Positions 19,001 through 44,983 of a stretch of DNA of 64,000 nucleotides are shown here, piece after piece. Source of the stretch: a virus. Taxonomy: Duplodnaviria > Caudoviricetes. The DNA lies in the IMG/VR virus record IMGVR_UViG_3300033074_001257, positions 21,405 through 85,404 of that record; one strand, given 5' to 3'. Both the position numbers and the translations under genes were made by a program. The notes beneath the pieces are model-generated. The model saw only the letters and a list, made by a program, of their open reading frames with translations, ran no database searches and was not told where the DNA came from. Each line of letters begins with the position of its first letter. Position 1 is the stretch's first letter.

Positions 19001-22000
19001 TCAAACATCGACGCGGGTGTCGATGCCCTGCGGCGCGTAGCCAACACGCAAAACCTGATGCAGAGCGATTGGTCACAGTGGGTTGACGTCAACACGACCA
19101 CGCTACGCGAGGACACTACCGGCAAGGATGAGGTTTCTGACACTCGTGTCCTGGGCAACAAAAACTCCATCGTAACCACAACGTCCGTCACGTCGCAATC
19201 GCGTTCACGAACCACAACTACCATTGACTCGCGCACAGAAAAGTTCAGTGTGGACGACGTGGTGAAAGACGTGAAGATGATCCCCTATATGCGTGAGGCA
19301 GTGATTCGCTTTGCAGCCACGCACATGAAACCGCGATCGCAAGTCCACGCATTTTTCGATGGCGTCAATGTCGATCAATACTGCCGCCCGCTGGCACAAG
19401 TTCCAAGCGGTGACCCAAGGTTGGCCATTGTCGGTTTGTCGCCGCTTGTCGTTGACGATAACGGTGAAGTCGTGGGCGAGTTCCATTTGCCCAACGGCGT
19501 GTTCTTCACCGGCGATCGCAAGTTCGTACTGATCGACAGTGAAAGTTTAACCGACGACACCAGCGCACACACGACATATGCCGAATCAGTTTACTTTGGC
19601 GGCGGCATTGCGCAAACAAAACAAAGTTCAACCCTGAACATCGTGACGCCGCTTGCGGTTCAGACGACTTACACAGACAACCGCACCGTGACCAAAGTCA
19701 CCCGTGAACAAACCGTGGCGCTGCCGGTTACAGTGGTGATGCCGCCCGCTGCTGAAGTCAAAGCCGCACCCGTTGCGCCGCCACCCGCGCCCGTTCCTGC
19801 GACGGTGGTTGTTCCAGTACCGCCCCCGCCCGCACAAGATCCACAAGCCCCGCTGTGGGCTAACCTGGGTCCGTCGCAGAAGAAATACGAGAACGGCAGA
19901 TGGGGAGTTTACTTCAACGGCGACTTCACGATGAGCGAACGCGAGTTCAAGTCACTTGAAGAAGGTGAATTCGACGCCTATGTTCAAACAAACGGCGAAG
20001 CGTTCTACAATCTGCGGTTTGGTTACTTCATCGCCGGTCGCGAAGATACCCAAAACGGTCGAGTGCGACGCAACAAGGTCGGTGACGATACTTGGTCGGT
20101 TAAAATCTCAGGCCCGCGACGGAACATGTACACTTATATCTCAGGCGCACCCACCCCAACTGCCGATTGGCTTGATGTGATCCAAAACGGCGCCAGCTGT
20201 CGCATCAAGCAAGCAGGTTCACCGTCTGAGAACTTCAGCACTTGGTATGAGAGCGGTCGCAAGGTGAACAACGCTTTCGCAAACATGGTACGCGAGGGCA
20301 ACGCGCCGTTCTGGGTCTGGATCCAGCCTGACTTGTTGACAATGTCCGTCAACCTTAGCAACGGGTTCCGCGGACTCCGCTCAAGTGACCCGCTGGCACA
20401 AGCCTTCAAAGTAGACGAGTCGTGTTTCGTCACGCGAATTGATCTGTATTTCGCGTCGGTTGATACTGTCACGGGCGATAACGTGTGGGTTGAGATTCGC
20501 GACATGGTGAACGGCTACCCGAGCAACAACGCACTTGCACGCAAAGTCTACAGCCCAAATATCCTGGCGAACTCGGTGAGCACAGACGGACGCACTGCAT
20601 TCCCTGTGGTCTTTGACATCCCCGTCTTTGTCGACAAATCAAAATCGTATTGCTTTGTGGTGGGCGGCCACAGTCCAGATACCAGACTCTTCGTGTCGCG
20701 CCTGGGCGATAAGATCTTGGGCGGCAACGGCAAAGTGGTTGAGGAACCGCCCCTGTTGTGGACGTCGTTTCGCTCACTGAACGGCGAGACTTGGACAGCC
20801 GAACAACTTGAATTCATCAAGCACACCCTGTACCAAGCACACTTCAAGTCGTTGACCACGAAGTTCACTTTTGAGAACGCAGGAACAGACGACGTTCTGC
20901 TGCCAGAAGATCCGATTGAATTTGAGCTTGGGACAAGTAAGGTTCGCGTGACCATTCCAGACCATGGGCTCAAAGTCAACGACACGTTCAAACTGAGTGT
21001 GTGTGACCGCCTGTCGTTCAATGTTCAGAACACCAACGACACGCCGCCACAGATCGGTCACATCTTCAAGACAGTACACGGCAACGGCACAGTTCACACC
21101 GTTGAGCGCGTGGGCGTGAGCGGCGTCTATAAGATCACACTCACGAACGTAGTGGGCACGATTAACGCCGGCACCGCGTACCAGTGCGATGCCACATACC
21201 GTGACCTGAACGACGACTTGCTTGACGTGCTGAACATCAACAAACCGCGGACGCTGCTTCTGGGTGAATCGCTGGGCACGGTCACGACATCCATCTACGA
21301 CAGTCTGTTGACCGGTGAGAAGATTGGCGGCGCCACGCTGGACAAGTTCAACACCACGCACCAAGTGAAATGGGTGGACAGTCCAGACTCGGTTATCGTT
21401 GAAGTGGACTACACATTCAACGACGCCGCAGCACCCAACAAGGTGGGCGGTAAAGTGACCCGCGTGAAGGACGTGGCCCGCAAATACGACACATTCAACG
21501 TCTCGTGCGAGCACCTGGCTTACAACACGACGTCGGCTTTGACCATGGTCGGCTACAATGCCGCAACCGTGCAAGCGACAGCGCCACAGCCGATCTCACT
21601 CAACACAAACCACAACCTGCCGGCACCCAACGTCGTGTACAGCAACGGCGGTGAAGTGGCAGCGATCGGCACCAACAAGTCGCTCACCGTCACGATGGAG
21701 TTTGCGTCGCAATCCAACCTGCTTTCGCCGGTAATCAATTGCGACACCGTATCCGCGACGCTGGTGTCAAATCGCTGCTATCCTTTCACGCCAGACAAGA
21801 TGAACGTCGCACCCAACGCTGCCAACCGCTTTGTTCCGCAAAGCGCAAACAACGCAAGCGGCAACCACAAATACTTCACGAACGACGTTCTGCTGAACAA
21901 CCCCGCAAGCGACCTCAAAATCTATTGCGACGTGTACAAAGATGTTGATGCTGACTTTGACATCTACGTGAAGGTCGCTGCGGCCGGTGATTTGAACTAC

Positions 22001-41079: not shown

Positions 41080-41143
41080 AACAGTGTCTCACGTGACGAA
41101 GGATGAAAGTGAGGGCCTTTTGTTGTAGCCCTCACAGCGTACT

Positions 41144-41264
41144 TTACAGCAATTTGCGGTAGTGTGCTAGCGTTTTTACCCATGCGAGCGTAAAGCCTCG
41201 AACTAGACTTTGAGGGTATAGGCGAGGGCAGTCAGTTTCACCAAGGTTGCTCAATGTCATTGAC
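41144..41264 (-). pseudogene. Orphaned 3' end (39 codons + stop) of the 42384-43268 gene, separated by the TnpB element
   Basis: Joining 42388 to 41264 gives the in-frame read ...EKNIYK-SMTLSNLGE...HYRKLL*. Confidence 0.75.
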
Positions 41265-42387
41265 ATCATCCCATAGAACAAAGCATAATGCGACCTATGA
41301 AAACCCTCAAGTTCCGTCTCAAAGATAAACACGCCAAGCTACTCACCCGACTTGCTTGCGAAGTCAATTTGGTATGGAACTACGTCAATGACCTGTGCTT
41401 TAAACACCTTCAACGCACGGGCCAATTCTTTTCGGCCTTTGATGTTCAAAAATACACTGCGGGTGCCACCAAAGCAGGGCTAAACCTGCACAGTCACACT
41501 ATTCAAGCCATCAGCGAAGAACTGGTCACGCGCCGCAAACAGTTCAAAAAAGCCAAACTTAAATGGCGGGTCAGCAATCCCAATTCCTCTAAGAGATCAC
41601 TGGGCTGGATACCGTTTAAAGCTTCGGCAATCAAATGTCAACATGGTCAAGTTAGGTACCTGGGCCAATGGTTTAGCTTGTGGGACAGCTATGGCTTAGA
41701 TCAGTACAAAGGCATGGTTAAAACGGGCTGTTTTGTTGAAGACAGCCGCGGCCGCTGGTATGTATGTTTGGTGGTAGACGTACCTAAAGACGAATCAAAA
41801 AAAGCGGCGTCGACCACTGCCATCGGCATCGACCTTGGGCTCAAAGACTTTGTCACGCTGTCTAATGGCCAAAAGATCGAAGCGCAGCGCATCTACCGAA
41901 AATTTGAACCCAAACTGGCCACGGCACAACGTGCCCACAAAAAGCAACGGGTCAAGGCGATCCACGCCAAGATTAAAAACACCCGCCGCGATTTCCATCA
42001 TAAACTTAGCGCCGCACTGGTTAAAGACCATGCGGCCATCTTCGTTGGCAATGTGAACGCCAAAGGCTTAGCACAAACCAAACTGGCCAAGTCAGTATTG
42101 GATGCAGGCTGGTCGGCGTTTAGAACCATGCTCAAGTACAAATGCCAGCAGGCAGGAGTATGGTTTGAAGAAGTCAACGAAGCGTATACCACCCAAACTT
42201 GCTCGTGTTGCGGCTCACGCCAAGACAGTCCGAAAGGTAGGGCAGGCCTTGGAATAAGAGAATGGACTTGTGTGCAGTGCGGTACACTGCACGACCGCGA
42301 CATCAATGCCGCCAAGAACATTCTCGCGCTCGGGCATGAGCGTCTCGCTGGAGGAATTCCCTCACCAAAGTGAGGGGAGGATGTCAC
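41265..42387 (+). mobile_element. Non-autonomous IS200/IS605-family element carrying tnpB only
   Basis: Right-end hairpin CCCTCAC-caaa-GTGAGGG then GGATGTCAC; left flank TTGAC; removal restores a host ORF; no tnpA present. Confidence 0.8.
41297..42373 (+). CDS. tnpB: TnpB RNA-guided endonuclease
   Basis: KTLKFRL...VWNY, GIDLGLK, RRDFHHKLS, VLDAGW..F...L.YK, VNEAYTTQTCSCC, CVQCG..HDRDINAA.NI. Confidence 0.93.
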   Translation: MKTLKFRLKDKHAKLLTRLACEVNLVWNYVNDLCFKHLQRTGQFFSAFDVQKYTAGATKAGLNLHSHTIQAISEELVTRRKQFKKAKLKWRVSNPNSSKRSLGWIPFKASAIKCQHGQVRYLGQWFSLWDSYGLDQYKGMVKTGCFVEDSRGRWYVCLVVDVPKDESKKAASTTAIGIDLGLKDFVTLSNGQKIEAQRIYRKFEPKLATAQRAHKKQRVKAIHAKIKNTRRDFHHKLSAALVKDHAAIFVGNVNAKGLAQTKLAKSVLDAGWSAFRTMLKYKCQQAGVWFEEVNEAYTTQTCSCCGSRQDSPKGRAGLGIREWTCVQCGTLHDRDINAAKNILALGHERLAGGIPSPK

Positions 42388-43268
42388 TTGTAGATGTTTT
42401 TTTCATCGTACATGTTCTGACGCAGCAGCCCATACGACATCGCGTAGGCAATCAGCGATATGGCTTGCTTGATGTTGTGCTTGTGGAACAACCCAAGGCA
42501 GTAGGCGATATAATGGCTGATCGTAAGGCTTGTCAGTGCCGACTCTTTGGTTGCCTTGGGCAGGCTTGTGAGGTTCACAGTGTCAAACTCGATCATGTAG
42601 TCGACGAGGTTGAACTGCTCAACGCGCTCACTTCCGAGGTTCCGCGCGACGCAATCGCACAGCATAAGAAGCGAGTTCATGTTGCATCGTGTGTTGTCGT
42701 TCAGTTCAGCAAACGAGTTCGCCCGCCGACCGATCGACTCATTCAAGTTTGACCACAGCGGCGGAGTCACCACGTTCTTGAATGAGATGCCCACTTTGGT
42801 GAACAAGTTCTTGAGCGGCGAAATGCCCATGATCAGATTGTTAACACTTGTCACATCAAATTCAACGGCAGAAAAACCCAGCCCGAGCCCGCTGCTGTGC
42901 GCCACACCGTCCCTGAACTTGTACATCATGCTATCGTGTATGAACCAGCAATCATCTGAGGCATTGAGTGCCTCGACCATCTCAGCCTTCAAGCGAATGA
43001 AGGTTTCTTTTTGAAACTGTACATCTTCACCGACGCCGCTATAGCACAGCGGGGTGCCGTTGTATTCGACAATCAAGGTCGGCTGCGGGTTGTCGTACCA
43101 GATGGTGGGAGCGGGGATCTTTTTGACGCGAATGCGAGTGCGCTTACCGTTTTCATCGCGAATGGTGAGCATTCCGCCATCTGACTGCGATGCCTTGTGA
43201 AGGTGAACTTCACGAAGGATCAAGTGGTCTGGGTTGAAGGGGGTGTGGTGCTGAGTGTGCAGTTTCAT
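42384..43268 (-). CDS. Hypothetical protein, truncated by about 39 aa by the TnpB element
   Basis: 294-aa ORF whose stop codon is the complement of the element's terminal TCA. Confidence 0.7.
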   Translation of the reverse strand: MKLHTQHHTPFNPDHLILREVHLHKASQSDGGMLTIRDENGKRTRIRVKKIPAPTIWYDNPQPTLIVEYNGTPLCYSGVGEDVQFQKETFIRLKAEMVEALNASDDCWFIHDSMMYKFRDGVAHSSGLGLGFSAVEFDVTSVNNLIMGISPLKNLFTKVGISFKNVVTPPLWSNLNESIGRRANSFAELNDNTRCNMNSLLMLCDCVARNLGSERVEQFNLVDYMIEFDTVNLTSLPKATKESALTSLTISHYIAYCLGLFHKHNIKQAISLIAYAMSYGLLRQNMYDEKNIYK

Positions 43269-44875: not shown

Positions 44876-44983
44876 AAAATTACAAACTGTTACACAAGGT
44901 GGGTTGCTGCTTTACCGCAAATCGCTGTAATATTATTTCACGGACACAGCGTTCCGTTCCATACTACACCGGAGCAATCCATC

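Follow-up and report, generated by a model that had tools for sequence, protein, structure and literature searches.

TnpB-only elements of the IS200/IS605 family rank with the most common genes of all, and earlier reports have described them in viruses. In IS608, four guide nucleotides at the hairpin foot (GL, AAAG) recognise the left cleavage site (CL, TTAC), and the right cleavage site (CR, TCAA) lies 10 nucleotides (nt) from the hairpin (PMC3201880). TnpB takes as its guide the sequence 3′ of the right end (RE) of the element (PMC8612924). For TnpB proteins with a rearranged RuvC-II motif, it was argued from models that the rearrangement means a different active-site geometry rather than inactivation, and some of the rearranged branches are enriched in viruses (PMC10691335). 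The term "transposon non-restorative homing" has already been proposed for the spread of such elements into co-infecting phages or plasmids (PMC13565253, a 2026 review). Here, we analysed a tnpB-bearing insertion and the phage gene next to it in a 64,000-nt stretch of viral DNA (the window; positions 21,405 to 85,404 of the record IMGVR_UViG_3300033074_001257), which is part of an 85.4-kb IMG/VR virus record with a CheckV completeness of about 41%.

The sequence at 41180-42387 (1,208 nt) is a TnpB-only, non-autonomous insertion sequence of the IS200/IS605 family with IS608-like ends. It is a real, intact and well-delimited solo element, and an ordinary representative of a known transposon family. 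As a whole, we favour with a probability of about 0.85 the explanation that an IS608-like element made of tnpB and an omegaRNA was mobilised in trans, landed at the end of a phage gene, and keeps an intact TnpB whose role is the retention of the element. The solo, phage-borne status proposed in the original prediction was borne out, as the gene product matched PF07282 (Cas12f1-like_TNB, 5e-26) and PF01385 (OrfB_IS605, 4.8e-14), while the 85-kb record contained a single PF07282 match and no match to PF01797 (Y1 TnpA). The source is an uncultured lytic-type T4-like phage; genes for T4-type capsid, tail-tube and gp13 proteins adjoin the locus on contigs of sibling phages, and the sequencing runs with the sequence or its siblings came from wastewater, activated sludge and aquatic metagenomes.

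The left boundary was set by comparison with related elements. The sequence from 41180 onward is common to the left ends of such elements in more than 35 unrelated contexts, and the part 41180-41264 is kept as left-end sequence in both phage and bacterial genomes that are otherwise unrelated. The shared left block, which reads TTTAT followed by CCATTGGAGCGTAAAACCTCG, a loop and CGAGGATATAAGCGA..., aligns with 41175-41225 of the window, and in the closest relatives the conservation continues via CAATGTCATTGA, a C or A, and ATCATCCCATAGA... up to the ATG of tnpB. In the original prediction the element began at 41265, which is 85 nt too far in, and its target motif was TTGAC; the actual motif is TTTAC at 41175-41179, and TTGAC belongs to a promoter-like site within the element, TTGACA (41260-41265)-N18-CATAAT (41284-41289). 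The empty alleles of sibling phages lack exactly 41179-42386. The sibling contigs L002, L003 and L019-L023 have no tnpB between the host gene and the next gene, and contigs of three further studies bridge 41178 to 42387 (two) or 41175 to 42387 (one), with the element absent.

For the right boundary, we compared 20 related elements: 15 from viral contigs, whose proteins are 52-77% identical to that of the window, and the five closest ones, with 88-93% identity. Conservation in these elements runs to GGAGGATGTCAA and is followed by unrelated flanks, and in the window it stops at 42387. The right end thus consists of a hairpin and GGATGTCAC, with 42387 as the last base of the element, and here the earlier placement of the right end, together with that of the guide, which starts with TTGTAGATG directly after it, was confirmed. 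The relatives end in GTCAA, whereas the window element and its closest relative, in contig L026, end in GTCAC; over all loci, TCAA was found in 61 distinct flank contexts and TCAC in two. The TCAC of the window is without a matching change in GAAT. Since a C is present at both junctions, there is a register ambiguity of one nucleotide, and 41180-42387 is equivalent to 41179-42386. The latter register, in which C 42387 would belong to the flank, was set aside because the closest relative also ends in TCAC next to a different flank, and because the pair TTAC/AAAG fits the rule of the family. We also noticed that the copy in L026 (2300-2500) has a left end without the AGCGTAAA(A/G) box and with a weak hairpin, and this copy may be immobilised.

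The ends of the element resemble those of IS608 in the way in which the target is specified. Directly 5′ of the left end, TTAT was found in 35 distinct insertion contexts, mostly as TTTAT, while the window and contig L072 have TTAC at this junction instead. At the foot of the left hairpin, all elements with TTAT carry the tetranucleotide AAAA and the two with TTAC carry AAAG; mixed pairs did not occur. As this pairing of TTAC with AAAG fits the IS608 rule, the left junction looks like an authentic product of TnpA, with C 41179 as a part of the target. Subterminal hairpins are present at both ends (Table 1), and the stems of both covary among the relatives; there are no terminal inverted repeats, and the right cleavage site follows 10-11 nt past the right hairpin. 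The sequence GTTTTTA at the left flank is common to the window and the sibling phages. In two other contigs, L004 and L005, the elements sit right after the T-tract of hairpins resembling intrinsic terminators, where the run of T gives TTTAT, and these left flanks suggest that terminators are natural landing pads for this TnpB family.

The insertion is located at the very end of a phage gene on the minus strand. The host protein ends with ...EKNIYK, and the TGA that follows corresponds, on the opposite strand, to the TCA of the element at 42384-42386, so the donation of a stop codon, as it was first proposed, holds. On the host strand, the siblings read ...TAC AAG, then a tail, then TAA AA(A)C, and the corresponding sequence of the window is ...TAC AA(G TGA ...element...)G TAA AAA C, with the element in brackets. 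The last four bases of the element, TCAC, provide the host gene with the final base of its last Lys codon (42387) and with its TGA stop (42386-42384). The TAA stop of the siblings is still present at 41176-41178 (TTA on the plus strand), as part of the TTAC motif. Provided that AAG was directly followed by TAA in the target allele, the insertion left the protein sequence unchanged. The locus can serve as a worked example of how an element can reside in a lytic-type phage without harm to a gene, by landing where the last codon meets the stop codon and by donating a new stop.

The host protein falls in one 90% cluster with six variants, which end in NIYK plus zero to seven residues: none (window), VHQTS, TPQAS, PKST, PKNI and PKNIQNH. 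A seventh allele, from run X2, has the tail QKSE. No Pfam or PHROG family matched the host gene, and searches of IMG/VR and GenBank phages returned no host-gene relatives. The 4-7 codons after NIYK are hypervariable and form two tail types, VHQTS/TPQAS and PKST/PKNI/PKNIQNH/QKSE; the variable tail corresponds to the region of 42388-42399 in the window, to 5886-5900 in L002 and to 2386-2397 in L019, and is also found in L021, L022 and L023. The 300 nt of the gene before the tail are 91-98% identical, and the downstream block is of two types. Judging from these alleles, the insertion site is a local hot spot, or a recombination breakpoint lies exactly there. An intergenic 21-mer, ACTTTACAGCAATTTGCGGTA, was seen at 41141-41161 (+) and again, with three mismatches, at 44913-44933 (-), with none expected by chance; it is also present elsewhere in an 82.7-kb contig of run X1, and may represent a regulatory motif of the phage that lies upstream of genes on the minus strand.

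The tnpB open reading frame (ORF; 41288/41297-42373, plus strand) is intact. It also matched PHROG 506 ("transposase") at 2e-80. Its close homologs number more than 4,500; those in Acinetobacter and Moraxellaceae go by the name InsQ/TnpB. All relatives start with MKTLK, which places the start at 41297 and gives a protein of 358 amino acids (aa); the in-frame ATG at 41288 is probably unused as a start. In an alignment with the PDB structures of ISDra2 TnpB, the Asp residues of RuvC-I and RuvC-III are in place, and so is the zinc finger. The canonical Asp-Glu-Asp triad of RuvC is not present, as a Gly occupies the position of the RuvC-II Glu (E278 of ISDra2), and a Glu stands where the VSPYF of ISDra2 has Pro. 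D179, G251, E295, the four Cys and D335 are invariant in 14 diverse members of the family. By this residue pattern, the protein is of the rearranged RuvC-II type, with Gly at the canonical site and a conserved alternative Glu. The TnpB looks intact, since the Asp, alternative Glu, Asp and zinc finger that are invariant in the family are kept.

The last ~130 nt before the right boundary have a conserved fold (RNAalifold, 13 elements) with 45 pairs, 14 of which show compensatory changes. Paired cells made up 94.5% in this alignment against 36-53% with slid partners, and values as high as those observed never occurred in 500 shuffles, even though the region codes for protein as well. No Rfam family matched this structured RNA at a permissive threshold. 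The covariation supports an omegaRNA-like structure as the candidate scaffold. The promoter-like site in the left end matches at 11 of 12 positions and lies 7 nt before the ATG. No Shine-Dalgarno sequence precedes the tnpB ATG, an arrangement kept in the closest relatives L027 and L030 (41260-41299 in the window), and the tnpB mRNA may be leaderless. In the position equivalent to the guide, the right flank reads TTGTAGATGTTTTTTT..., a sequence whose 16-mer is unique in the window. TnpB and this RNA would form a putative nuclease guided by TTGTAGATGTTTTTTT, which would cut only DNA with TTTAC (or TTTAT) abutting the guide match, i.e., the exact empty or excised site.

As to the arrival, the element was most likely mobilised in trans by the Y1 TnpA of a full-length relative in a Moraxellaceae-type host. 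It would have entered in single-stranded form, 3′ of TTAC and between the last codon of the phage gene and its stop codon. That the 85-kb record holds no TnpA is the reason why we infer mobilisation in trans. In Acinetobacter, a Y1 TnpA was found beside tnpB genes of the family, as with the copies of Acinetobacter thermotolerans, and one genome had 26 TnpA matches and at least 17 tnpB copies. The best cellular matches of the TnpB (76-77%) were in Agitococcus and Moraxellaceae genomes, from similar habitats. Taken together, these relatives make mobilisation in trans in a Moraxellaceae-type host the likely route. In a megablast search of the 4.5-kb neighbourhood against phages, the sole match (72.8%) was the TnpB of Acinetobacter phage HFM1. 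The five closest relatives of the TnpB (L026, L027, L028/L029 and L030/L031; 88-93%) are in phage-like contigs of differing kinds, with a UvsW-type helicase, with a P22 NinX-type protein, or with PhoH and a cell-wall hydrolase, and with no adjoining tnpA, which suggests that this TnpB sublineage circulates among phages.

Several observations weigh against this reading. Every sampled empty allele carries 12-21 variable nt at the position of the element, and the exact empty site, TTTAC joined directly to TTGTAGATG, had no matches in viral contigs; among metagenome contigs there were two, both unrelated low-complexity sequences. No contig from four runs joins TTTAC directly to TTGTAG, although rare excision products could escape here, as the runs were searched as contigs and not as reads (the runs labelled RNA were probably DNA). 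Since the exact empty site was not found, a clean insertion needs an unsampled allele with a zero-length tail; otherwise, 12-15 nt must have been deleted with or after the insertion. The 12 nt of the left flank next to the insertion differ from L019 by one indel and one substitution. The right cleavage site TCAC is atypical for a family with TCAA, and the competence of the element for excision is uncertain; in the closest relative, L026, the same TCAC goes with a degenerate left end. As the record is incomplete, the rest of the phage genome may hold a TnpA, and the activity of TnpB, at TTTAC or TTTAT, is a prediction. The right junction of the window had no matches in other viral contigs.

Alternatively, the present junction may not be pristine. 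The element could have inserted 3′ of TTTAY in a tailed allele and later lost 12-15 nt by its right end, or the segment could have arrived by phage recombination, and in both cases the present guide would not be the original one. The tail in every sampled empty allele is in line with this, and L021 has TTTAC at the right place (GTTTTTAC followed by GAAGCC...); an L019-like allele has GTTTTAT followed by GTGC.... The left-flank differences from L019 are directly followed by 150 nt in which the window shows 100% identity with both L019 and L022, and the right TCAC is atypical. On the other hand, insertion and excision of IS200/IS605 elements are seamless (PMC3201880), the match of CL and GL favours an authentic left junction made by TnpA, and the TCAC of L026 next to a different flank indicates a base of the element and not a deletion scar. 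We keep this explanation as a serious but clearly less probable one than a clean insertion by TnpA in trans.

It is also unlikely that the element is a decaying or immobilised relic, a neutral passenger with a TnpB or ends that no longer function. The canonical RuvC-II Glu is absent, CR is TCAC and not TCAA, the record contains one copy and lacks a TnpA, and the element-bearing allele was found in one run besides the record, which is perhaps the source of the record. However, the Gly and the alternative Glu are invariant across a multi-copy family, including genomes with at least 17 copies next to TnpA, the ORF is full-length with all invariant residues, and the left hairpin, the GL/CL pair, the right hairpin and the RNA helices are all intact.

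The target of the guide is present in all siblings, but the adjacent 5-mers are GAACC, TTGGC, TTTGC and GCGTC, none of them TTTAY, and in every sampled sibling 12-21 nt lie between the TTTTA motif and the guide match. Since the motif does not adjoin the guide match, known siblings would stay uncut under the conventional requirement for a transposon-adjacent motif (TAM). Homing of TnpB into them is unlikely, and the data at the locus argue against it, contrary to the idea in the original prediction that TnpB would cut sibling phages. The nuclease probably cannot home into the sampled siblings, and its role would be the usual retention of the element. The allele with the element is known from the record and that one run, while empty alleles are present in at least nine samples, a distribution expected of an insertion that is rare and recent and not of a drive that sweeps the population. 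One could still read the variable tail of 12-21 nt as the footprint of a TnpB homing drive, in which zero-tail alleles (TTTAC followed by TTGTAGATG) were converted during co-infection and resistant tails were left; we regard this as improbable. If true, such a footprint, together with the presence of all five closest relatives in different kinds of phage, would mean a phage-circulating TnpB lineage that spreads by non-restorative homing.

The first proposal, an element of 41265-42387 placed 3′ of TTGAC inside a 333-aa gene, with a TnpB that homes into sibling phages, can be practically dismissed, because the in-frame open reading on the minus strand that appears when 41265-42387 is deleted stands against a conserved left end (41180-41264, TTGA(C/A) included) in unrelated contexts, sibling empty alleles that remove 41179-42386, host-protein variants that all end at most seven residues past NIYK, and a TTGACA that is the -35 box of the promoter-like site. 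The open reading itself is real, whereas the restored gene with its 39-aa extension is found in no homolog. The extension is the antisense of the left end of the element, and homologs end at NIYK without it, which is the very outcome that the proposal itself had named as speaking against it. An open stretch of 39 codons in one given frame is expected by chance in about 15% of cases ((61/64)^39), and the conserved left end, the gaps in the siblings and the lack of an extended homolog identify the open reading as an artefact. Likewise, the search for the empty allele in relatives, which was advised at that time, did recover element-free siblings, none of them exact and all with tails. For annotation, the case is a caution: where the antisense strand of a transposon end happens to be open, it is easily taken for part of a "restored" host gene.

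Table 1. Coordinates and predicted joints of the tnpB element and its flanks in the window.
Feature	Position	Strand	Basis or remark
Target / transposon-adjacent motif TTTAC (CL = TTAC, 41176-41179)	41175-41179	+	Flank, not element; aligns with TTTAT 5′ of the left ends of relatives
Left end (LE): GL AAAG 41192-41195, subterminal hairpin 41196-41215, promoter-like site	41180-41296	+	Conserved in relatives
tnpB, 358 aa from the MKTLK start	41297-42373	+	Pfam, PHROG and PDB alignments
Structured RNA (candidate omegaRNA scaffold) over the 3′ end of tnpB, as far as the hairpin of the right end	42258-42378	+	RNAalifold
Right end (RE): subterminal hairpin 42359-42376, then 10-11 nt to CR TCAC 42384-42387	42359-42387	+	Homology stop; fold -7.3 kcal/mol
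Right flank, predicted omegaRNA guide/target TTGTAGATGTTTTTTTCATC, antisense of host codons DEKNIYK	42388-42407	+	TnpB guide rule, PMC8612924
Host phage gene, 294 aa	42384-43268	-	ORF list
Predicted exact empty/excised junction: ...GCGTTTTTAC joined to TTGTAGATG...			
Predicted single-strand circle joint: ...GGATGTCAC joined to CCATGCGAGCG			

Among the described systems, non-restorative homing (PMC13565253), in which cleavage by TnpB at the orthologous empty site of a replicon in the same cell leads to the copying of the element into that site, corresponds to the idea of the original prediction; it differs from this locus in that the motif does not adjoin the target in any sampled sibling, and the locus gives it no support. 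By residue pattern, the protein resembles the TnpB clades with a rearranged RuvC-II in which Gly replaces Glu (such as RIIr-5; Altae-Tran et al. 2023, PMC10691335), as it has this Gly and a compensating conserved Glu elsewhere. With ISDra2 TnpB (PDB 8EXA/8BF8/8H1J) it shares the domain order and a structured RNA over the 3′ end of tnpB up to the right boundary, as well as a guide given by the right flank and a TAM equal to the target motif of the transposon (PMC8612924). The similarity to ISDra2 TnpB is only ~88 bits, however, and the window protein has Gly for E278 and the alternative Glu at VNEAYT, with a predicted TAM of TTTAY versus TTGAT.

The closest likeness at the ends is to IS608 of Helicobacter pylori. 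Both elements have asymmetric ends with subterminal hairpins, neither has a target duplication or inverted repeats, and in both the insertion is 3′ of TTAC, paired with the 4-nt guide AAAG at the foot of the left hairpin; the right cleavage falls ~10 nt past the hairpin, and the relatives of the window element have TCAA as IS608 does. In contrast to IS608, the window element has no tnpA in cis, its right cleavage site is TCAC, its left cleavage site is 16 nt from the hairpin versus 19 nt, and it resides in a lytic-type T4-like phage. The covariation from TTAT/AAAA to TTAC/AAAG within its family is a natural instance of the retargeting rule that links guide and cleavage site in IS608.

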